Assembly: GCA_964590705.1 (NCBI GenBank)
Contig: CAZPZF010000121.1
Coordinates: 1-10,019, forward strand
DNA from: an uncultured Spirochaetales bacterium
Lineage (GTDB): Bacteria > Spirochaetota > Spirochaetia > CAZPZF01
Direction: 5' to 3'
Length of the DNA: 10,019 nt
Below the pieces are notes generated by a model. It worked only from the letters and a program-made list of their open reading frames with translations, ran no database searches and was not told where the DNA came from. The translations under genes and the position numbers were made by a program. Shown piece after piece: positions 1,191-10,019 of this stretch (position 1 is the stretch's first letter; every line of letters starts with the position of its first letter).

Positions 1191-3185
1191 TCAGTCCGCG
1201 TATTCGGAAAGCGGGGTCGTAGACACCGGCTTCCTGAAAAGGGAGAAGAGGATCCCTAGAATGACGCAGTTGATCACGGACGCCGCGGCGAACAGGTTCC
1301 ACCGGGGATTCCCCGAAGCCACGCTTCCGACGTACGAAAAGAGCTTCAGGCTGATCGTATAGGCCTCATCGTTGTCAAGAAAGAGGAGCGGGGCCATGAA
1401 TCCGTTCCACGCCGAGAGAAACGCCATCATCATCGAGGTGGCTATGGCGGGCATGCAGATCGGGAGGAGGATCCTCGTCATGTACCGCACTCCACCCATT
1501 CCCTCCAGCAGCGCGGTCTCCTCTATGGAACGCGGCACCCCGTCCAGGAAGGCCTTCATGGTGAAGAGGCTGAAGACCACCGTCTGGTTCAGGTAGATGC
1601 AGACGAGTGGAACATATGTGCCGATCAAGCCCATGCCGCGGAAGATCCCGTAGAGGGGGACGAGGGAGTGCATGCCGCCGAGCATTCCCAGCGCTTGGAC
1701 AAAGGTGAGGAAGCCGTACACGAAGCGGTCGCTCTTTCCCGAAAGCCAGACCGCGGTCGGGAAGGTAAAGAGGGGGATGAGCAGGGCGGTCGCTCCCGCG
1801 ACGATCGTGGTATTCAGGAAATAGCGGAATATCGATTCCTGGGTGATCAGCCTGATGAAATTCTTTCCCGTGAGGAATCGGGGGATCAGCCTGTCCACAT
1901 AGCAGGCGCTGACGCCTGAGAAGCTCATCCACAGGAGCATGAAGATGATGAGGAGGGTCGATACGCAGAGGAGCAACGCGGTCGTCCAGTGGGAAAAAGC
2001 GTAGACCCCGCGCCTGATCGCACCGGGTTCCGGCGGTCGGCGGAACAGGAAGGCCCCCGCCGCGAGAACCGACAGGATGACCGCCGGATGGAATCCCTGA
2101 AAAAAACCGTTCCGCGATACAGCGACAACCATGAGGATGAGCTCTCCCGCGGCAGCGGGCGCCAGCGCTTTGGGCAGGAACGCGGTGACTGTGTACGCAG
2201 CTGCCCACAAAGGTCCGAAGCGCCCTCCGAGGAAGAGGTGAAAGACCGCGCAGAGGAGGGAAAGCATGCGGGACGGTTCCATGGGAAAAGGCCTGCGCCT
2301 GCCGCCCGATTTCCGCCTTCTGATGAGGAGCCACACCGACATGGCCGCGAGGATCCCGATCGAGAGGATCACCGAGTAGGCAGAGACGGCGCCGAAATCT
2401 TCCTCGCCGAAGAAAAGATCGTAGAGATAGATACCCGCGGTTGTCGTGGCCCCCAGGATGGACCGTTCCGTGATCCCGGAGACCAGGGGAGGCCCACCCG
2501 CGGTGAAGATGTGCAGCAAGGTGAATTCCTTGAGCCCCTTGATGAAGGTAAGGACGCCCATCGCTAGAAGCGTCTCCTTGACCGCGGGGGAGAATATCAC
2601 CGTGACGATATCGCCCCACCTCGCGCCGTCTAGCCGCGCCGCGTCGATCGTTTCCGCGCGCACCTTTCTGATGGCGCCCAGGATGACGAAAGCCGTGAGG
2701 GGAACGGTCATCCAGAGGCTCACCCAGAGAGCGGAGAGGAAGCTCCCGGCCGGGTCGGTCATGAGATTGATCTCGGCCCCTGTGAGCCGGGACAGGAGCG
2801 ATCTGCCGCCGTTTCCATGGATCAGCGCCCTCCAGAGGGGAGCCGCGATGTAGACCGGGATTCCCCACGGAACGAGAAGCACCCCGTAGAGAAGGGACGA
2901 CCCCCTGCCGGGCCTGGCGAGAGCGGCCGCGCACAAAAAACCCATCGCGAGGGACAGCGCGGTGTTCGCCGCGGCCCACAGGGCGGTCACCGACACGCTG
3001 TAGAGGAAACCCCGGTCAGAGAGGAGATCGCGGTAGTTGTCCAGGCCAGCACAGCTCCTCTCATCGTACGTATCGTGGAAAAAGGAGCCGTACACGGCGC
3101 TCGCGAAGGGTGCGATCCCGACCAGGAGGATCAGCAGAAGGAGGGGGATGATGAGGGTATCGGGTTTCGAAATGGATCGGCGCAT
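1191..3185 (-). CDS. Fused two-domain ABC transporter permease: a MalF/UgpA-like half plus a MalG/UgpE-like half in one 664-aa polypeptide
   Basis: ATG at 3185-3183. The protein has at least 12 predicted hydrophobic spans. It carries two separate 'EAA' permease signature loops: 'ETIDAARLDGARWGDIVTVIFSPAVKETLLAMG' in the N-terminal half and 'IEETALLEGMGGVRYMTRILLPICMPAIATS' in the C-terminal half. The two halves are joined by a basic linker (RRRKSGGRRRP). This is the last gene of the minus-strand sugar operon. Confidence 0.88.
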   Translation of the reverse strand: MRRSISKPDTLIIPLLLLILLVGIAPFASAVYGSFFHDTYDERSCAGLDNYRDLLSDRGFLYSVSVTALWAAANTALSLAMGFLCAAALARPGRGSSLLYGVLLVPWGIPVYIAAPLWRALIHGNGGRSLLSRLTGAEINLMTDPAGSFLSALWVSLWMTVPLTAFVILGAIRKVRAETIDAARLDGARWGDIVTVIFSPAVKETLLAMGVLTFIKGLKEFTLLHIFTAGGPPLVSGITERSILGATTTAGIYLYDLFFGEEDFGAVSAYSVILSIGILAAMSVWLLIRRRKSGGRRRPFPMEPSRMLSLLCAVFHLFLGGRFGPLWAAAYTVTAFLPKALAPAAAGELILMVVAVSRNGFFQGFHPAVILSVLAAGAFLFRRPPEPGAIRRGVYAFSHWTTALLLCVSTLLIIFMLLWMSFSGVSACYVDRLIPRFLTGKNFIRLITQESIFRYFLNTTIVAGATALLIPLFTFPTAVWLSGKSDRFVYGFLTFVQALGMLGGMHSLVPLYGIFRGMGLIGTYVPLVCIYLNQTVVFSLFTMKAFLDGVPRSIEETALLEGMGGVRYMTRILLPICMPAIATSMMMAFLSAWNGFMAPLLFLDNDEAYTISLKLFSYVGSVASGNPRWNLFAAASVINCVILGILFSLFRKPVSTTPLSEYAD

Positions 3186-3234: not shown

Positions 3235-4665
3235 CTAGAAGCGGAGGATGATCTTCGCGACTTGCCGGACCGCCTTGATCCCGTCGGGAACGAGTTTCGC
3301 GTCCTTGTCCCAGACGAGGATGAGTGGCCAGGCGTCCGCGGGTAGTTCCGCGTCTCCCTGGAACATGGCGAGGATCACGTCCTCGTTGTCGTGAAGCTGC
3401 CGGGAATCGAGCTTCACCGTGAATCCGTCAGCGGCCACAACTTCCACGGTGTAGCCCTTCTCGGCGGCCGCGGCGTCGTAGGAGAGGATCGACCTGTCCA
3501 TCTGCTTGTGGGGCATGTACTGAGGGTCGTCTGCGTAGGCAAGGAGCAGGTACAGGGGAATGCCGGTGTAGGAGAGGACCTCGTTGGTCTTCCTGTTGAG
3601 GTACTGCACCGTACGGGGATGGCAGCTCACGCCGCTCTGCACGGTCTGGCGGTCGAGAACCGCGGAGATCCGGCCCTCGATCCCTAGGGAGAATTCCCGA
3701 TAGGGTTCGCCCATGATCGCGATCCGTTTCACCATCCTGACCGAACTGTGGCCCTGGATATTCGGAATCGACGGGCCGACCTTTACAGTCCTGATATACC
3801 CCGGATCGAGCGGGAGGTATTCACCGTCCATCCTGAAGGCGAGGATCCAGACGCCGTCGGCCCTGTCCACGAAATCGCCGGCGCTGAAACTCATCTCGTA
3901 GCCGTCCATGGCCGCGAAGGTGATGGTCGAGTCTTTTCCGAGCTGCACGAAGCTCGACAGGAATGGGTAGAGTTCCACGCCACCGTAGGCGTTGGTGTAG
4001 GTGGTTCCCGCCGAGGTGGTGAAACTCCCCTTGCCCTCGAGGTAGTACACGGAGGACTCCAGGTCCTCGAGCGTGAAACTCTTCTTTTCGCCGTTGACAA
4101 CGATCTCGAGGGTGAAGACCTCGGACTGCGAGGTATCGGCGCCGAGCCCCAGCTCGATGGATACGACGTCGCGCACCCACAAAGTTCCGGGAACCGTGCC
4201 GACGATGTTCGGGGTCGTGGTCACGCCGGCCTCGTTGTCGCTGAGGTACAGGGCATCGGGGTCGTACTCGGCGGTGTTGAAGGTCACCGTGTACCCGTCC
4301 CTTCCGGTCACGGTGATGTCGTACCCCTTCTCCCACAGGGCGGAGTCGAAGAGGAACGGATGCTTGGCGTCCTCGCCGTCGGCCATGGCTGCGAGGTACC
4401 AGAGAGGCATACCCTTGAAGAGCACCCGCTCGCCCTTGCGCTCGAGGGTTATCTCCCGGTAATGGCTCGCGTGCTTCTGCGCCTCAACGAAATAGGCGGC
4501 GTCGACCGTCTCCTCGCGCACGCCGCTGATGACGATCTCCCAATCGCCCGCGCCGGAAGCGCCGGGCCCCGTGGCGCATGAGGAGAAGAGGGCAGCGCTC
4601 CCGGCGAGAAGGATCCCGAGGAGAATGGCTGCAATAGATGGAACCACCGAACGACGAGTTGTCAT
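3235..4665 (-). CDS. Lipoprotein (477 aa) made of three tandem ~130-aa repeats. Probable accessory or substrate-binding component of the ABC importer; otherwise hypothetical.
   Basis: I placed the start at the internal ATG 4665-4663, which is preceded by AAAGGAG with an 8-nt spacer. The track's upstream GTG at 4983 would add 106 residues with no ribosome-binding site. The N-terminus 'MTTRRSVVPSIAAILLGILLAGSAALFSSC' is a signal peptide with a lipobox-like L-F-S-S-C. Each of three internal repeats shows G-[MVI]-PL-[WY]-x-LL, then DGY-x-[VM]-[TS]-F, then D-[AV]-x-[LI]-LA-x(4-8)-G-x-[LP], then a [VI]-[KR]-x-[VI]-x-x-I tail. Confidence 0.8.
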   Translation of the reverse strand: MTTRRSVVPSIAAILLGILLAGSAALFSSCATGPGASGAGDWEIVISGVREETVDAAYFVEAQKHASHYREITLERKGERVLFKGMPLWYLAAMADGEDAKHPFLFDSALWEKGYDITVTGRDGYTVTFNTAEYDPDALYLSDNEAGVTTTPNIVGTVPGTLWVRDVVSIELGLGADTSQSEVFTLEIVVNGEKKSFTLEDLESSVYYLEGKGSFTTSAGTTYTNAYGGVELYPFLSSFVQLGKDSTITFAAMDGYEMSFSAGDFVDRADGVWILAFRMDGEYLPLDPGYIRTVKVGPSIPNIQGHSSVRMVKRIAIMGEPYREFSLGIEGRISAVLDRQTVQSGVSCHPRTVQYLNRKTNEVLSYTGIPLYLLLAYADDPQYMPHKQMDRSILSYDAAAAEKGYTVEVVAADGFTVKLDSRQLHDNEDVILAMFQGDAELPADAWPLILVWDKDAKLVPDGIKAVRQVAKIILRF

Positions 4666-4781
4666 AAAACGCTCCTTTTCATCATACGAATCCCGGATGC
4701 CCGCGGCGCGATCCGCATGGGACCCGGTCACAGATCCGGCGTCGGGGTGAACCCCACGCTCGTTGCCCGCGCCGGCCGCTC

Positions 4782-6269
4782 TCACATATTGGCGTCTATC
4801 ACCGCCTGACCCTGCCGTAGGGTTTCCTCGACGGTCAGCTGCCCCTCGAGGGCGAACCGGAGAAGTTTCCACATGGTGTTCTTGAAAACGGCGTATCCCC
4901 GTTCCGGGGGAATGGGCGTGCCCGTATCCGCGCTGTACCGGAGGACGGGATAATAGGGATTCCGCGCCTTGACGATCTCCCACGCCCGCTCGTCGGCCGG
5001 CAGCTTCGCCATTTCCGCCGTGAAGCGCTGCTGAACCCCTATTCCGCAGAGATACTGAATGAGGCGGCGGGCGAGCACCGGGTTGCGCGTCTTCCGCGGA
5101 ATGGCGAAGGCCTTGAAATCGAGGACCGGAGAAACGGGAAGACCGGTACGGTCGTTCATCGGATAGGGGGAGCCGGAAAAGGGAATGCCCAGCTCCAGGA
5201 AATCGGGGATGCTGTAGGAACCGGAGAGGATCATCGCCACGTTGCCGGCGACGAACTCGGCGATCATCGCGTCCCGCTCCATCTCGGCCAGGTATCCCAG
5301 GGATTTGAGGCGGAGGAGGTATCGGATGGCCTCCCGTGTCGGGCTGTCATCTATGCGGACCGACCCGTCTGCCTCCAGGAACGGGATCTTCCCAAAGGAG
5401 ACCTGAAACGGAACGAGCCAGTAGGCGGAATAGACGTTCCAGCTCATGGGCACGACCCCGGTTCCGGCTATCCGCGCCGCGATCCTCTCCATGTCAGACA
5501 AGGTCCACGAGGACGCGGCGGGTTCCCGCACAAGCCTCGGATTGGAGAAGAGGAGCTGGGAATCGAAATAGAAAGGAACAGCCCAGACCTTGCCCCCGGC
5601 GCTGAACGAGAAAAGCCCCTTGGAGGTGATCGTTTCAGGAACGAAGGAGTCCACGTTCTGGATCGCCTTGGCCTCGACGAGGGCGGGGATGTAATCCGAT
5701 TGGACCATGATCACGTCGGGCGGTGTGCCTCCCCCGCGGAGCACGGAGAGGAGCTTGGAGTCGGTCTTGGGAACCTCGGTCACCTTGACCCTGATGCCAT
5801 GCAGTTCCGCGAAGCGGGCGATCTCCCGTTTCAGGAGGGGGACCCCTTCCCAGCTCACCCAGACCTCGACATCGGCGGCCGGCGCCTCCTCGCCGTATAC
5901 CCGGATCGTCTTGACGCCGGCGATCCGCCAACCGTCTCCCTCCAGGTCGAATTCCGTGCCTCGGGGAACAAGATACCAGCGGGAGAACCGATCGACCAGA
6001 TCGTCCCCCGCCAGGGTCCGCGATCCCGTTCCGGAGACCTCGACCCGGTACACTGAAATGAAGAGGGGAAGTAACTCATCCGCGGAGATCCCCCGGACCA
6101 ACGAACCGCCGACCGGCACGAGGTAGAGGAGATCGGCGATATCGTTATGGGAGATCGCCGCGCGGGGAGTTCCGTTGACAATGAGATCCAGGGCAGGCAG
6201 GGGAAAAGCGCAAAAAGCAACGAGGATAAAAGATAGAATGGCCCTGCGGCTTCCGATGGGGAATTTCAC
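4782..6269 (-). CDS. ABC transporter extracellular solute-binding protein, family 1 (MalE-like carbohydrate binding), with an extra ~120-aa N-terminal module
   Basis: The C-terminal ~380 aa show typical family-1 solute-binding-protein features: after the N-terminal module come 'EVWVSWEGVPLLKREIARFAE', 'GKVWAVPFYFDSQLL' and 'VAGNVAMILSGSY'. I placed the start at GTG 6269-6267, preceded by GGAAAGGAAGAGG and giving a clean signal peptide 'MKFPIGSRRAILSFILVAFCAFPLPA'. The track's 6377 start is a TTG, has no ribosome-binding site, and gives 36 hydrophilic residues before the signal peptide. Confidence 0.82.
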   Translation of the reverse strand: MKFPIGSRRAILSFILVAFCAFPLPALDLIVNGTPRAAISHNDIADLLYLVPVGGSLVRGISADELLPLFISVYRVEVSGTGSRTLAGDDLVDRFSRWYLVPRGTEFDLEGDGWRIAGVKTIRVYGEEAPAADVEVWVSWEGVPLLKREIARFAELHGIRVKVTEVPKTDSKLLSVLRGGGTPPDVIMVQSDYIPALVEAKAIQNVDSFVPETITSKGLFSFSAGGKVWAVPFYFDSQLLFSNPRLVREPAASSWTLSDMERIAARIAGTGVVPMSWNVYSAYWLVPFQVSFGKIPFLEADGSVRIDDSPTREAIRYLLRLKSLGYLAEMERDAMIAEFVAGNVAMILSGSYSIPDFLELGIPFSGSPYPMNDRTGLPVSPVLDFKAFAIPRKTRNPVLARRLIQYLCGIGVQQRFTAEMAKLPADERAWEIVKARNPYYPVLRYSADTGTPIPPERGYAVFKNTMWKLLRFALEGQLTVEETLRQGQAVIDANM

Positions 6270-6363
6270 GATCCTCTTCCTTTCCAAATACGGGGGGCTC
6301 AGCCGTTTCCCGCTGAACCGTTTCGGTCCTGTTCCATAGCGTGGCGCCGTAGGATACAGGACT

Positions 6364-6393
6364 CGGAAGTATCTCAATGACGAACGGAAGTAT
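6364..6393 (-). promoter_or_regulatory. Two direct repeats CGGAAGTAT(n)TCAAT spaced 21 bp (two helical turns) apart; candidate regulator-binding sites upstream of the transporter operon
   Basis: Read directly: CGGAAGTAT occurs at 6364-6372 and at 6385-6393, each followed within 1-3 nt by TCAAT. The second copy overlaps the putative -10 of the minus-strand promoter. Confidence 0.35.
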
Positions 6394-6464: not shown

Positions 6465-7742
6465 CTACGCGGGCCGGCTTTCCAGGCATGGAGCGCCCGT
6501 GTCCCTCCCGAGAATCTCCGCGGCCCTGCTGAAAACATGGTCAAAGGCCTCATCGACTCCCGGGCCGCAGGGGCCGTTCAGGGGAAACGGTTGTTCGTGG
6601 CTGTACGGAAAGGGAAAGTCCGATACCTCCACCCTGCCCGGGGGGCAGAAGCGGCCGAGGGTTTCGACGACTCCCGCGCCCGGCATCACCTCGTCTCCGG
6701 CTAGGGCGACAGCCCCCAACCGCGGGCCGAGTTCCCGAAACCGCGCGTTTCTGACCGCGGAGCCCTCGCGCAGGTCCAGCATGCTCCCGATGCACTGTCC
6801 AAGGCGCTGGAAACCTCCGGCGATCCGTTGGAGAAGGGATCCGGTCTCCTCCTTTGCGGTAGTCCGGCGTGCAACCGTCAATTCGCTGTCCATAAACTCG
6901 AGGAGGGCACGCTCCGCACCGCTGTCCATGATGTAACGGGAGACAGGGCGCATCAGATCCATCGTCGAACCTCCGCAGAAGAGGAAGCCCCGCGAGTGCG
7001 CGAATCGGTTCCCCGGATCCGCCATGAGGAGGATTTCGGCGAGGAGCGCTCCGATCGAGTATCCGAAAAAATCGAAGCTGCAGTCCCAGGGAAAAACCTG
7101 ATGCGCGCCGCCGGCAATCTGGTCCGTGAGGCTGATGATATCACGATAGGTTTGCAACCCGGAGAGGAGGAACCTGCCCGGGAACTCGTGGAGCCGGCTG
7201 CTGAGCGCGGCATTGATGAACGACACTTCCGTGATCCCCGGATACCGCTCCTTGCGCAGGGACGCGAGTCGCATCAGGATCCGCCTATCCGTCCAGCTTC
7301 GGGGGACCCGGTCCATATGGAAAGCGATCGGAAAGAGGATGACTCCCTTGCCCGTACGCCTGCACAGGGCCGCGGCCCAGGGGAGATACTTATCCCAACT
7401 CTTCTCGTTCAAGCCGTGGAGGAGGAAAATCGCTCCCCTCGGCTTCGGATCGCTCGCGGGAAGAACGATGTAATAGGGAAATCGGGTGTTCTCATCCGCG
7501 TCCTGAAGGGAGAACCCGTGCACATCAAGGGTGCTGTCCAGCCCGTCTTGTCGGGCGCGCTCCTGTCCGCTCCACGTCATGGGGAGAGGCGATTCGAAAT
7601 CGGAACGGAACGCCAGCTTCTTGATCGAGACATCCGAGCGGGCGTCATCCACCCCTCTCGAAGCGGCGGTACCGCTCTTCAGGGATTCGAACAGGCGTGA
7701 AAGGGAAGAGAGCGATTCGGCGTACGTTTCTTTTGGATGCAT
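6465..7742 (-). CDS. Alpha/beta-fold hydrolase (serine esterase/lipase-like), predicted cytoplasmic
   Basis: The nucleophile elbow G-Y-S-I-G sits in 'FDFFGYSIGALLAEILL'. Upstream is a block 'GAIFLLHGLNEKSW' typical of alpha/beta hydrolases, and a candidate catalytic His lies in 'FPFPYSHEQPF'. There is no signal peptide. I placed the start at ATG 7742-7740; the track's 7796 start is a TTG. AGGAG lies 13 nt upstream of the ATG. Confidence 0.78.
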   Translation of the reverse strand: MHPKETYAESLSSLSRLFESLKSGTAASRGVDDARSDVSIKKLAFRSDFESPLPMTWSGQERARQDGLDSTLDVHGFSLQDADENTRFPYYIVLPASDPKPRGAIFLLHGLNEKSWDKYLPWAAALCRRTGKGVILFPIAFHMDRVPRSWTDRRILMRLASLRKERYPGITEVSFINAALSSRLHEFPGRFLLSGLQTYRDIISLTDQIAGGAHQVFPWDCSFDFFGYSIGALLAEILLMADPGNRFAHSRGFLFCGGSTMDLMRPVSRYIMDSGAERALLEFMDSELTVARRTTAKEETGSLLQRIAGGFQRLGQCIGSMLDLREGSAVRNARFRELGPRLGAVALAGDEVMPGAGVVETLGRFCPPGRVEVSDFPFPYSHEQPFPLNGPCGPGVDEAFDHVFSRAAEILGRDTGAPCLESRPA

Positions 7743-7837
7743 ATCTTCGGTGCGACTCCTAGCTGTTGATCGTCGATCTTCATAAAGACAGACCAACCGG
7801 AGGCGCTTTCGGTTGCACGGTCTGCGTCGAATTCCCC

Positions 7838-7866
7838 TTGACAGATCCCACTAGTTGTTCTATTAT
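7838..7866 (+). promoter_or_regulatory. Sigma70-type promoter for the GntR operon: -35 TTGACA (7838-7843), 17-nt spacer, -10 TATTAT (7861-7866)
   Basis: The -35 is an exact consensus hexamer and the -10 is 5/6, with optimal 17-bp spacing. It sits in the only AT-rich island of the window, ~40 bp upstream of the GntR ATG. Confidence 0.6.
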
Positions 7867-7873
7867 TTTATTG

Positions 7874-7895
7874 TACTAATACTTTAATACATTAG
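7874..7895 (+). promoter_or_regulatory. Tandem TAATAC motifs (CTAATAC / TTAATAC, 8-bp register) bracketed by a short CTAAT...ATTAG inverted repeat, at about +1 to +20 of the GntR promoter; candidate autoregulatory GntR operator
   Basis: Read directly from the sequence. The position overlapping the transcription start fits repressor binding. It lies in the divergent region shared with the hydrolase gene. The symmetry is only weakly palindromic. Confidence 0.3.
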
Positions 7896-7903
7896 GACAA
7901 GCC

Positions 7904-8326
7904 ATGACCGCAGTGAAAAACAAGGAAGAGAATCTCTCGTTTACCCTCGATCCGAAGAGCGGAGTTCCGTACTACAAGCAGATAATGGTTCAGATCGAGA
8001 TGGCGATCGCGGACGGGAGGCTTGTAAGCGGAGATCAGCTTCCCACGGTCAGGAGCCTGGCGGTCGATCTCCGGATCAACCCCAATACCGTTGCCCGGGC
8101 GTACAGTTCCCTCGAGATCAGGGGAATCGTGAACACACAGCAGGGCACCGGAACCTTCATCAGCGACAAGAAAGTGTCCATGACCGACATCGAGCGAGAG
8201 AGGATCCTCACGGAGCTGACGGCCGAGTTTCTCGCAAAGGTCCAATCATACGGATTCACCAAGGACGACATAATAGCGTTCCTGGGCGAGCTGGGAACCC
8301 AGGACCAAGGAGGTGAGAGGAGATGA
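7904..8326 (+). CDS. GntR-family transcriptional regulator, short YtrA-like subfamily (140 aa)
   Basis: ATG at 7904 with AGGA 6 nt upstream. The N-terminal winged HTH 'VPYYKQIMVQIEMAIADGRLVSGDQLPTVRSLAVDLRINPNTVARAYSSLEIRGIVNTQQGTGTFI' matches the GntR signature. The C-terminal ~50 aa form only two short helices, the YtrA-type architecture that usually accompanies ABC transporter genes. Confidence 0.9.
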   Translation: MTAVKNKEENLSFTLDPKSGVPYYKQIMVQIEMAIADGRLVSGDQLPTVRSLAVDLRINPNTVARAYSSLEIRGIVNTQQGTGTFISDKKVSMTDIERERILTELTAEFLAKVQSYGFTKDDIIAFLGELGTQDQGGERR

Positions 8327-9486
8327 ACCCATTCACACAAAAGGCAGCGACATTCGCGAGAATTAAGAACGTGCAAAAAAAGAGCCTGGAGCGGGACTTT
8401 TCGTACAATCCGTTCGCGTTTCTCATCCTCGCATTATTTCTCGGGACCGGTGTCCTTCTCCAATACCGATTTTTAAACGATTTCGACTGGGGAAAAACCG
8501 CCTTCACCGCCGTCGGAACCATCGCGGGCGTCATCGTCATCGCCGCTATCCCTCTCTGGGTAACGGTCCTGACAATGATAGCGCTGGGCTGGCTTTCCAT
8601 GTTCGTCTGGCTGGGAAGCGGGTACTGGATCCTATTTCTCTTCATCAGCTTCGGGCTCTTCCTTTCACCCTCGTGCCAGCTCATCTTCCAGTGGGACAAG
8701 GCTGTGATCCTCAGGGTGGGGCGCTTTCATCGGATAAAAGGCCCGGGACTCTTCCTCCTCATGCCCATGGTCGACCGGATCGCCGCGTTCATCGACACGA
8801 GGATCCGGGCAACCGATTTCAGCGCGGAGAAAACGCTGACCCGGGACACGGTTCCGGTTCATGTGGACGCCCTGGCTTTCTGGATGATCTGGAACGCCAA
8901 GCAAGCGGTTCTCGAGGTCGAGAACTATCTGGAGGCGGTGGTCCTGTCCGCGCAGACGGCGCTCCGCGATTCGATAGGCAAGCACGATCTCGCAGATCTT
9001 CTCTCGGAGCGGGAACGGCTCTGCGCGGAGATCCAGAGCGCCCTCGACGCTAAGACCAATCCGTGGGGTATCACGATCCTCTCCATCGAATTCACCGACA
9101 TCATCATCCCGCAGGCTCTCGAGGACGCGATGAGCAAGCGGGCACAGGCGGAACGGGAGAAGCAGTCCCGTGTGATCCTCGGCACCGCGGAGGTCGAGAT
9201 AGCAAGAAAATTCGCGGAGGCAGCCGAAAGCTACCGCGATAACCCGACGGCCCTCCACCTGCGCGCCATGAATATGGTGTACGAGGGGATACGGCAGAAA
9301 GGCTCCATGATCATCCTCCCCTCCTCCGCACTCGACACGATGAACCTCGGCGGCGCCATGGGAACCGCCGCGTTCGCGAAGGGACTGGAGAGGGAAGGGA
9401 ACCCGGCCGACGGGCCTCAGGCCGGAGACGGCACCGGGCATGGCGGGGAAAACGGTCAGGCTGAAACCGACGAAATCGGACGATAA
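8323..9486 (+). CDS. SPFH/Band-7 (stomatin/prohibitin-like) domain membrane protein with an N-terminal polytopic membrane region (~3-4 hydrophobic spans)
   Basis: ATG at 8323 overlaps the GntR TGA (ATGA), with a strong ribosome-binding site AAGGAGGTGA upstream. Residues ~30-115 are hydrophobic spans. The SPFH core runs from 'WDKAVILRVGRFHRIKGPGLFLLMPMVDRIAAFIDTRIRATDF' to 'ILGTAEVEIARKFAEAAESY'. The C-terminal tail is Gly/acidic-rich. Confidence 0.85.
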   Translation: MNPFTQKAATFARIKNVQKKSLERDFSYNPFAFLILALFLGTGVLLQYRFLNDFDWGKTAFTAVGTIAGVIVIAAIPLWVTVLTMIALGWLSMFVWLGSGYWILFLFISFGLFLSPSCQLIFQWDKAVILRVGRFHRIKGPGLFLLMPMVDRIAAFIDTRIRATDFSAEKTLTRDTVPVHVDALAFWMIWNAKQAVLEVENYLEAVVLSAQTALRDSIGKHDLADLLSERERLCAEIQSALDAKTNPWGITILSIEFTDIIIPQALEDAMSKRAQAEREKQSRVILGTAEVEIARKFAEAAESYRDNPTALHLRAMNMVYEGIRQKGSMIILPSSALDTMNLGGAMGTAAFAKGLEREGNPADGPQAGDGTGHGGENGQAETDEIGR

Positions 9487-9503
9487 GCAGGGGGAGAAAA
9501 CCA

Positions 9504-10019
9504 ATGGTACGGATAGAAAACGTCAGAAGAGACTACGTCATGGGCGATGTCGCGGTCCAAGCCCTGAAAGGGATCAGCCTTACGGTCAACAAGGGGGATT
9601 TCCTGGCCATCGCTGGACCCTCCGGTTCGGGAAAAACGACACTCCTCAACATCATCGGCTGCATAGACCGGGCGGACGGCGGAACCATCCGGATAGACGG
9701 GGAAGATGTGGGAAAGAAGACAAAGGACGAGCTTGCCCTCTTCAGGAGAAGGCAGCTCGGCTTCATCTTCCAGACCTTCAACCTCATCCCCGTCCTGACC
9801 GCGTACGAGAACGTTGCCTTCGCCCTTTCGATCCTCAACATCCCGGCGGAGGAGGAGCGGCGGAGGACTATGGCCATCCTCGACGAGGTTGGGCTTTCCG
9901 GTATGGAGAACCGCCGGCCGAACCGACTCTCCGGCGGGCAGCAGCAGCGGGTCGCCATCGCCCGGGCCCTGGTGAAGGAGCCCCTCATCGTCCTCGCCGA
10001 CGAACCCACGGCAAACCTC
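9504..10019 (+). CDS. ABC transporter ATP-binding protein, MacB/LolD/FtsE-like, 3'-truncated by the window edge
   Basis: ATG at 9504 with GGGGAG 7 nt upstream. Walker A is 'GPSGSGKTT', the Q-loop 'FIFQ', the ABC signature 'LSGGQQQRVAIARAL' and Walker B 'IVLADEPT'. The frame is open to the window end. The antisense ORF 9533-10009 in the track is an artefact. Confidence 0.92.
   Translation, partial: MVRIENVRRDYVMGDVAVQALKGISLTVNKGDFLAIAGPSGSGKTTLLNIIGCIDRADGGTIRIDGEDVGKKTKDELALFRRRQLGFIFQTFNLIPVLTAYENVAFALSILNIPAEEERRRTMAILDEVGLSGMENRRPNRLSGGQQQRVAIARALVKEPLIVLADEPTANL

Follow-up and report, generated by a model that had tools for sequence, protein, structure and literature searches.

Positions 7,838 to 10,019 of a 10,019-nucleotide stretch of contig CAZPZF010000121.1 (hereafter the window, meaning the whole stretch), from an uncultured Spirochaetales bacterium, probably form the head of one operon in which a sigma-70-type promoter and a palindromic operator precede genes for a GntR regulator, an SPFH protein and an ATP-binding cassette (ABC) ATPase. 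The explanation that we favor, and consider probable, is that of an autorepressed envelope-stress cassette built from a YtrA-type repressor and a stomatin-type protein and extended in spirochaetes by a Lol-like exporter. Its core would be an old two-gene cassette pairing an effector-less YtrA-type repressor with a stomatin-like SPFH protein anchored by four helices. The evidence comes from the conservation of this pair across related loci, the recurrence of its operator and the variability of the genes that follow.

The regulator-SPFH pair is the invariant unit

The window was read from its sequence and a table of open reading frames (ORFs), and calls were made with Pfam, NCBIfam and a promoter scan. 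The GntR, SPFH and ABC ATPase genes all lie on the plus strand. The features of the region, in window coordinates, are as follows.

7838..7866, plus strand: predicted sigma-70-type promoter, -35 TTGACA at 7838-7843, 17-nt spacer, -10 TATTAT at 7861-7866
7872..7891, palindromic, no strand: predicted operator, TGTACTA-ATACTT-TAATACA; consensus TGTAYTA-N6-TARTACA
Predicted repressor target DNA: TGTACTAATACTTTAATACA
7904..8326, plus strand: YtrA-subfamily GntR regulator, 140 aa; Pfam GntR PF00392
8323..9486, plus strand: stomatin-family SPFH protein (slipin), 387 aa; Pfam Band_7 PF01145
9504..10019, plus strand: LolD/MacB/FtsE-like ABC ATPase, truncated at the window end after 172 of 243 codons (5' part); Pfam ABC_tran

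An earlier interpretation made from the letters of the window (the sequence-only reading) had proposed these three gene identities and their tight spacing, and both were borne out by the ORFs and the Pfam matches. The stop codon of the regulator (TGA, 8324-8326) and the start codon of the SPFH gene (ATG, 8323-8325) share the tetranucleotide ATGA at 8323-8326, and a 17-nt gap separates the SPFH stop codon (TAA, 9484-9486) from the ATPase ATG at 9504. Ribosome-binding-like sites were seen for the regulator (AGGA, 7894-7897) and 9 nt upstream of the SPFH ATG (GGAGG), and GGGGGAG lies 7 nt upstream of the ATPase ATG. No terminator-like sites were found on the plus strand between 7700 and 10019, nor any structured RNA in the GntR-SPFH-ABC region, the sole Rfam match of the window being located elsewhere. 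The stoichiometric co-expression that had been read into this layout does not follow from an overlap of start and stop codons.

Related loci (designated by L numbers) were collected in two scans. The first compared the window SPFH protein with one genome per species; the second was run on metagenomes with an Acidobacteriota-type SPFH protein (L081) as seed and contributed 80 more loci. Each scan kept its best 80 loci, so that the outer boundary of the SPFH subfamily lies beyond the reach of these counts, and most loci are metagenome-assembled. ORFs were called in the neighborhood and scored with phmmer against the window proteins. Titled records of the first scan were mostly Spirochaetota, including Sphaerochaeta, Oceanispirochaeta, Sediminispirochaeta, Salinispira, Alkalispirochaeta, Marispirochaeta and Pleomorphochaeta, along with one Gemmatimonadota, one Acidobacteriota and several entries named 'uncultured bacterium'; a second homologue search, made with the Acidobacteriota-type SPFH protein, added hardly any further taxon names. 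Over both scans, wherever a locus included upstream sequence, a GntR gene directly preceded the SPFH gene in the same orientation (137/137), and the two genes overlapped by 4 bp in 101 of them. This arrangement is far beyond chance.

The genes that follow the pair are more variable. For 73 first-scan loci at least 1.5 kb of downstream sequence was available, and 60 of these present the order GntR, SPFH, LolD-like ATPase and two MacB_PCD/FtsX permeases, frequently with an overlap between the SPFH stop and the ATPase start. Three loci (L005, L022 and L058) instead carry a DrrA-like ATPase with two ABC2_membrane_3 proteins, that is, an ABC-2 system, and the remaining 10 are followed by unrelated genes with no adjacent ABC component. 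Some of the closest relatives of the window protein come from loci without an ABC part (L004, L006) or with the ABC-2 system (L005); their identity to it is 66-68%, and they group beside it in a neighbor-joining ordering. In the second clade, recovered with the L081 seed, the regulator and SPFH genes again form an overlapping pair, and an ABC component within 3 kb is missing from 36 of the 38 loci whose downstream sequence is long enough. Since the regulator is always present while the ABC part varies, the invariant unit is GntR-SPFH and not SPFH-ABC. The sequence-only reading had regarded the SPFH gene as inserted between regulator and transporter, with SPFH and ABC as the defining pair, and the survey speaks against both points. 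Its proposal of an uncharacterized envelope module holds as far as the module is concerned, with the axis shifted from SPFH-ABC to regulator-SPFH.

The ABC-less clade has a recurrent feature of its own. Of the loci with 1.2 kb or more of sequence past the SPFH gene, half (21/42; L092, L093 and 19 others of L084-L163) share a gene in the same direction about 100 nt past the SPFH gene, for example at 7243-8868 in L092 and 6075-7661 in L093. Its product of approximately 540 aa has a signal-like N-terminus and a weak DUF3352 match, and it is possibly a third member of this version of the cassette.

To judge by its matches, the SPFH protein belongs to the true stomatin/slipin branch. Band_7 is matched with an E-value of 6.5e-33, and phmmer against the Protein Data Bank (PDB) retrieved human stomatin (E 3e-39), PH1511 (E 1.6e-35) and QmcA (E 1e-23), with far weaker matches to HflK/C (HflC, E 1.5e-08). 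The top Foldseek matches are likewise stomatins, and the NCBI label of the homologues is 'slipin family protein'. An AF2 (AlphaFold2) monomer model built on an alignment of 40 homologues predicts four transmembrane helices (30-50, 56-75, 79-97 and 99-117; pLDDT above 90 over the bundle) linked by loops of 1-5 residues and preceded by a basic N-terminal helix (3-13); N-terminal motifs are conserved in the alignment. The chain continues with an SPFH domain (about 125-288) and with long helices predicted as coiled coil (264-358), and it ends in a disordered acidic tail. Such an anchor is atypical, consisting of four helices rather than one helix or a hairpin. Charge counts across the 40 homologues amount to +3.6 ahead of helix 1, -1.0 for the first loop and +3.4 past helix 4, a pattern that predicts an N-in/C-in topology and would place the SPFH domain in the cytoplasm, on the same side as the repressor and the ATPase. 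The possibility that the four-helix bundle represents a fused NfeD membrane part was rejected (hhalign against E. coli YbbJ, probability 0.2%). No NfeD gene was found among the window genes or the sampled neighbors of related loci, in keeping with the sequence-only reading. With the N-terminal 122 aa as query, a search of 1.8 billion representatives returned 15 matches, mostly fragments, which are too few to size the subfamily.

The regulator matches PF00392 (E 6e-16) over residues 24-86, corresponding to the winged helix-turn-helix. No second Pfam domain is present in its 140 aa, and hence no FCD, UTRA or aminotransferase effector domain; the C-terminal part is short, with two helices (about 50 aa), as in the YtrA subfamily. 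Near-full-length matches were obtained to the short YtrA-type structures 4r1h (Lmo0741), 3by6, 3neu (Lin1836), 2du9/2ek5 (CGL2947) and 6sbs (Sulfolobus YtrA); residues 20-129 align to the 128-aa Lmo0741 (4r1h), to 2du9/2ek5 and to 6sbs. The best NCBIfam matches, Rv1152 (74.7 bits, cut-off 170) and PmtR (56.9 bits, cut-off 200), both remain below cut-off. These matches indicate a YtrA-subfamily member outside the Rv1152 and PmtR orthologous groups.

The promoter assigned to the pair matches 11 of 12 positions, has the top score of the region in the promoter scan and lies within an island of 30% G+C in a window of 61% G+C; position 7838 is the first base of its -35 hexamer. The palindrome begins 5 nt past the -10 hexamer and would therefore overlie the predicted transcription start. 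An alignment of upstream regions shows the palindrome beside or within the promoter in almost every locus, and TTGACA beside the operator is seen again in related loci. In its strict form, TGTAYTA-N(4-10)-TARTACA, it is present in the window and in 52 of 163 fetched loci (53/164 sequences), with a spacer of 6 nt in 53 of 55 strict sites, and it does not occur in 1.76 Mb of shuffled sequence. When at least 12 of 14 half-site matches were accepted upstream of the GntR gene, it was found in 72 of 74 genome loci and 40 of 55 metagenome loci, compared to 0/74 and 2/55 in the respective shuffled controls. Both the spirochaete and the Acidobacteriota/Gemmatimonadota-type clades have it. In Sphaerochaeta-type loci the operator is located between the -35 and the -10, and its TACAAT also serves as the -10. 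A palindrome placed in this way at the regulator's own promoter is what one would expect if a GntR dimer represses its own operon, and it is the presumed binding site of the dimer.

One locus, L032, contains two copies of the operator (2174-2193 and 3513-3532), the second an exact copy just upstream of an extra FtsX-type permease gene that neighbors the cassette, which suggests that further permease genes can belong to the repressor regulon.

The Lol-like module of spirochaetes

The exact SPFH protein of the window was found on three public contigs. The L003 contig, with 1 difference from the window in 1697 overlapping bases, holds the full 243-aa ATPase gene, whose stop overlaps the start of the next gene (ATGA). 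The first 203 aa of that next product are visible and reach the MacB_PCD threshold (27.0 bits, threshold 27), and full permeases with MacB_PCD and FtsX domains are found in L009, L015 and L165. The sequence-only reading had anticipated a permease just beyond the window, and extension downstream thus located one of FtsX/MacB type; the arrangement as a whole is conserved in Spirochaetota rather than sporadic. The ATPase fragment of the window matches ABC_tran (E 9.5e-36), with DarD, FtsE, LolD and MacB as best NCBIfam models; for the full-length protein the top models are LolD, MacB, DarD, DevA and FtsE, all below cut-off. Together with the permeases, it appears to constitute a type VII (MacB/FtsX/LolCDE-type) ABC system.

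Beyond the permeases, a gene encodes a secreted LolA_like/TP_0789-like protein of about 250 aa (PF17131, E about 1e-50). It was found in 42 of 53 loci by strict adjacency, and in all but one if over-extended ORF starts were allowed. Most spirochaete operons go on with this LolA-like protein and an outer-membrane barrel of 18-strand type. The same order is seen in independent gene calls of the isolate Sphaerochaeta pleomorpha Grapes, with GntR, Band_7, ABC_tran, two MacB_PCD/FtsX permeases, PF17131 and the barrel SpiGrapes_2213, past which the next gene lies on the opposite strand. The barrel family (~380 aa) has no Pfam model and 240 detectable homologues, including SpiGrapes_2213 and EXM22_02365 of Oceanispirochaeta crateris, and it models confidently as a Wzi/OprD/AlgE-like outer-membrane barrel. 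Representative barrel genes, each the last operon gene in spirochaetes, are located as follows.

L011, 15057-16226: predicted outer-membrane barrel
L009, 13536-14750: predicted outer-membrane barrel
L165, 9001-10080: predicted outer-membrane barrel

Some Sphaerochaeta- and Pleomorphochaeta-type operons have a third MacB_PCD/FtsX permease, placed either between the SPFH and ATPase genes or past the barrel gene (L015, e.g. 11123-12376, L016, L018, L019, L021, L023, L036, L041, L042 and L045-L047).

Overall, a Lol-like ABC module characterizes the spirochaete clade, with sporadic loss or replacement. Three canonical systems were considered for it and rejected. For LolCDE proper, the permeases score 96.6 and 152.9 bits against a lolCE cut-off of 362.45, and the ATPase 215.2 against 307.75 for LolD. 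For FtsEX, the ATPase reaches 207.8 bits (cut-off 264.85) and the FtsX models 26-44 bits (cut-offs 225-255); moreover, there are two different permeases of 410-420 aa and not a single FtsX with a small periplasmic domain. MacAB-TolC is not compatible with an ATPase and permeases encoded by separate genes and followed by a LolA-like protein and a porin-like barrel, with no adaptor. These below-cut-off LolCDE, FtsEX and MacB scores point to a Lol-like paralogous system rather than a canonical pathway. The MacB/FtsEX-type transporter of the sequence-only reading is accordingly replaced by one that looks Lol-like, given its two different permeases, LolA-like protein and outer-membrane barrel and the lack of an adaptor.

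It could still be argued that the ABC part is the housekeeping LolCDE-LolA lipoprotein pathway, with the regulator and SPFH protein as incidental neighbors. The best NCBIfam models are indeed lolCE/LolE for the permeases and LolD for the ATPase, and a LolA-like protein comes next. We nevertheless find this very improbable: the scores are far under the equivalog cut-offs, the carrier belongs to PF17131 and not to the canonical LolA family, the order of the genes, whose stops and starts overlap, is conserved, and close relatives lack the whole ABC part. An essential pathway would be expected neither to be dispensable nor to be placed under a dedicated autorepressor. Assignment to an anti-phage defense system was also rejected, as PADLOC gave no matches for the GntR and SPFH proteins, and the other genes showed generic ABC or LolE-like similarity.

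A candidate mechanism and its alternatives

In the explanation that we favor, a repressor dimer bound to TGTAYTA-N6-TARTACA at the transcription start would shut its own operon, and membrane or envelope stress would release it, giving a burst of SPFH scaffold. With the Lol-like module (LolD-like ATPase, two permeases, LolA-like carrier and 18-strand-type barrel) in the same operon, scaffold and exporter would be co-induced in spirochaetes, and the module may take a hydrophobic molecule out of the inner membrane for outward transfer via carrier and barrel. Release could come about if a membrane partner captures the repressor, as shown for MbrR and MbrA, with the SPFH protein favored here over the ATPase. 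That the repressor is controlled through the SPFH protein, as a likelier partner than the ATPase, is a tentative proposal that we would not call probable. Its most specific version is more doubtful still: the four-helix stomatin would sense the state of the membrane and bind the YtrA repressor with its cytoplasmic face or its basic N-terminus, thereby setting the level of free repressor.

Co-variation among the proteins was assessed by mirror-tree partial correlations over 44 complete seven-gene operons with 1000 subsamples. The value for GntR-SPFH was 0.47 (subsamples 0.14-0.67; label-permuted maximum 0.22), close to the permease-permease positive control at 0.50, while GntR-ATPase gave -0.22 and SPFH-ATPase 0.32 (subsamples 0.00-0.52). 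GntR-SPFH exceeded GntR-ATPase in 99.8% of the subsamples. This is suggestive of the SPFH protein, rather than the ATPase, as the specific partner of the regulator.

The SPFH-ATPase value bears on a different explanation, in which the SPFH protein serves the type VII ABC transporter specifically, as its scaffold or gate; an oligomeric SPFH cage would cluster or enclose the exporter, and this SPFH-ABC partnership would be what the operon exists for. Cages of this kind have precedents in HflK/C-FtsH and in human stomatin with aquaporin-1 and the urea transporter UT-B (PDB 9zd2; PMC12407830), the SPFH domain and the ATPase are both predicted to be cytoplasmic, and the two genes are adjacent and often overlapping in the 60 loci with the full order. 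Yet the lower bound of their correlation touches zero, and the same SPFH subfamily, regulator and operator occur with a mechanistically different ABC-2 system or with no adjacent ABC at all, both in the closest genome relatives of the window and in nearly all loci of the second clade. We therefore regard a dedicated transporter scaffold as unlikely.

A second explanation keeps the ABC system at the center of signaling. In streptococci, the ATPase of the partner ABC system detaches MbrR from DNA (bioRxiv 10.64898/2026.02.18.706565), and by the same principle the ATPase of a busy exporter would capture the repressor here, the SPFH protein being merely a co-induced membrane-protection effector similar to MbrH. 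This YtrA mechanism is experimentally supported, its authors expect it to hold for YtrA-ABC pairs in general, a flotillin belongs to the Mbr regulon and an ABC ATPase is present in the window operon. On the other hand, it is inapplicable to the many ABC-less cassettes unless a distant ATPase acts, the GntR-ATPase co-variation argues weakly against it when set against that of GntR-SPFH, and the ATPase here is LolD/MacB-like and may differ from MbrA. Transferred as such to the present cassette, ATPase capture appears improbable to us, and with many cassettes lacking an adjacent ABC it cannot be the whole story.

Several points weigh against an autorepressed stress cassette with the SPFH protein as partner of its repressor. 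The co-variation of GntR and SPFH could equally result from their shared history as a cassette while ABC modules were swapped. Repression, inducing signal and substrate are proposed by analogy, and in the sole experimentally studied case the sequestering partner is an ATPase and not an SPFH protein (bioRxiv 10.64898/2026.02.18.706565). PmtR of S. aureus is reported to bind its inducer directly. As for the exporter, the L003 contig ends in the first permease, and the LolA-like protein and the barrel are assigned to the window operon from relatives, the nearest being L009 with 63% SPFH identity. Finally, L004 and L006 do without any ABC part in spite of their close relationship, so the exporter is dispensable for the cassette.

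Apart from the cassette, the window contains two further elements. A DUF6051 protein (E 1e-102) is encoded on the minus strand at 6465-7796, divergent from the GntR promoter region; in the further loci examined, its gene is not conserved next to the cassette. A Moco/tungsten-cofactor riboswitch (RF01055, 72.8 bits, E 2e-16) is located at 6261-6380 on the minus strand, directly upstream of a minus-strand operon with genes at 4782-6377, 3235-4983 and 1191-3185. Their products, a solute-binding protein, an Oxidored_molyb-domain protein and a 664-aa double BPD_transp_1 permease, look like an ABC importer under riboswitch control, for which the molybdopterin-domain protein is an unusual partner.

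Relation to known systems

Short GntR regulators without an effector domain likewise head ABC-exporter operons in B. subtilis (ytrGABCDEF), S. aureus (PmtR-PmtABCD) and S. salivarius (MbrR-MbrAB), where a palindromic operator is located at their own promoter and the systems are tied to envelope or antimicrobial-peptide stress. These systems come from Bacillota and have an ABC partner, whereas the present cassette is found in diderm Spirochaetota, Acidobacteriota and Gemmatimonadota, with an invariant regulator-SPFH pair and an optional ABC part. The combination of SPFH and ABC proteins with a YtrA regulator, which according to the sequence-only reading may define an uncharacterized module, has a forerunner in the streptococcal Mbr regulon, which already joins ABC exporters with an SPFH protein, the flotillin MbrH, called unexpected by the authors (bioRxiv 10.64898/2026.02.18.706565). 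MbrH differs in being a flotillin encoded in a separate transcription unit and poorly conserved among streptococci, while here a stomatin-type SPFH gene adjoins the regulator. A likeness in layout is also found in another domain of life. The YtrA_Sa operon of Sulfolobus acidocaldarius also consists of two genes, with ytrA first and a membrane protein second (PMC6746942), and is autorepressed via a semi-palindrome over the transcription start (PMC6746942). For the partner of this archaeal regulator, the description goes no further than a putative membrane protein, and the likeness noted here is one of layout.

Among SPFH systems, Pyrococcus PH1511/PH1510 and E. coli QmcA-YbbJ share with the present protein the membrane anchor, SPFH domain and long coiled-coil helices. 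In those stomatin-NfeD operons the partner is NfeD, whereas here GntR and ABC or other genes occupy the neighboring positions. Regulators are not among the partners named in a survey of SPFH operons of prokaryotes from 2009 (PMC2636767). By comparison with HflK/C-FtsH and with human stomatin bound to aquaporin-1 or UT-B, the fold and coiled coil suggest an oligomeric membrane cage that may hold a client. The clients of HflK/C and stomatin are membrane proteins, whereas the sole universally co-encoded protein here is a soluble DNA-binding repressor. In E. coli K-12 (L164, NC_000913.3 514401-522830), qmcA-ybbJ is divergent from the ABC exporter genes fetAB, with a 145-bp gap, and ybbAP-tesA, which encode a type VII ABC system, lie at a distance of 4 kb; SPFH and ABC genes are thus close there, with no shared operon.

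For the spirochaete exporter, the closest described analogue is the Borrelia BBJ23-29 cluster, analyzed computationally and comprising a MacB-like ABC system, a LolA-like protein and an Omp85-type barrel (PMC13078400). Like E. coli LolCDE-LolA, it is a type VII ABC system with a LolA-type carrier, as here (PMC13078400). Shared features are the LolD-like ATPase, the four-helix permeases, whose periplasmic domain is MacB-like, the periplasmic LolA-like protein and the outer-membrane barrel, all encoded together. The barrel here is 18-strand-like, of Wzi, OprD/Occ and AlgE type, and not Omp85, and no TPR chaperone genes are present among the seven conserved operon genes. Neither LolCDE-LolA nor BBJ23-29 is headed by a GntR-SPFH pair, and the exporter is not LolCDE-orthologous.

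In summary, YtrA-type regulator-ABC operons and stomatin-NfeD operons are already known, and ABC systems of Lol-like type that include a LolA-like protein are likewise known, or have at least been described. A YtrA repressor constantly paired with an SPFH protein of stomatin type, by contrast, could not be found in the literature: full-text searches for YtrA/GntR paired with SPFH, stomatin or Band 7 returned no paper describing it. The cassette joins two questions, namely how YtrA repressors without a ligand pocket receive their signal, and what bacterial stomatins do and with which partners. The invariant pair, the clear operator and a cultured host, Sphaerochaeta pleomorpha Grapes, make both directly testable. 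If the stomatin does act as a membrane-state sensor, it would constitute an SPFH-based transcription switch, binding the repressor at rest or, conversely, under stress, and this would account both for the constant union of the two genes across phyla and for the persistence of the operator in ABC-less cassettes. The cassette also provides a regulatory context, regulated rather than housekeeping, for a poorly understood Lol-like module of free-living spirochaetes, whose carrier belongs to a Pfam family (PF17131) named after a Treponema pallidum protein.

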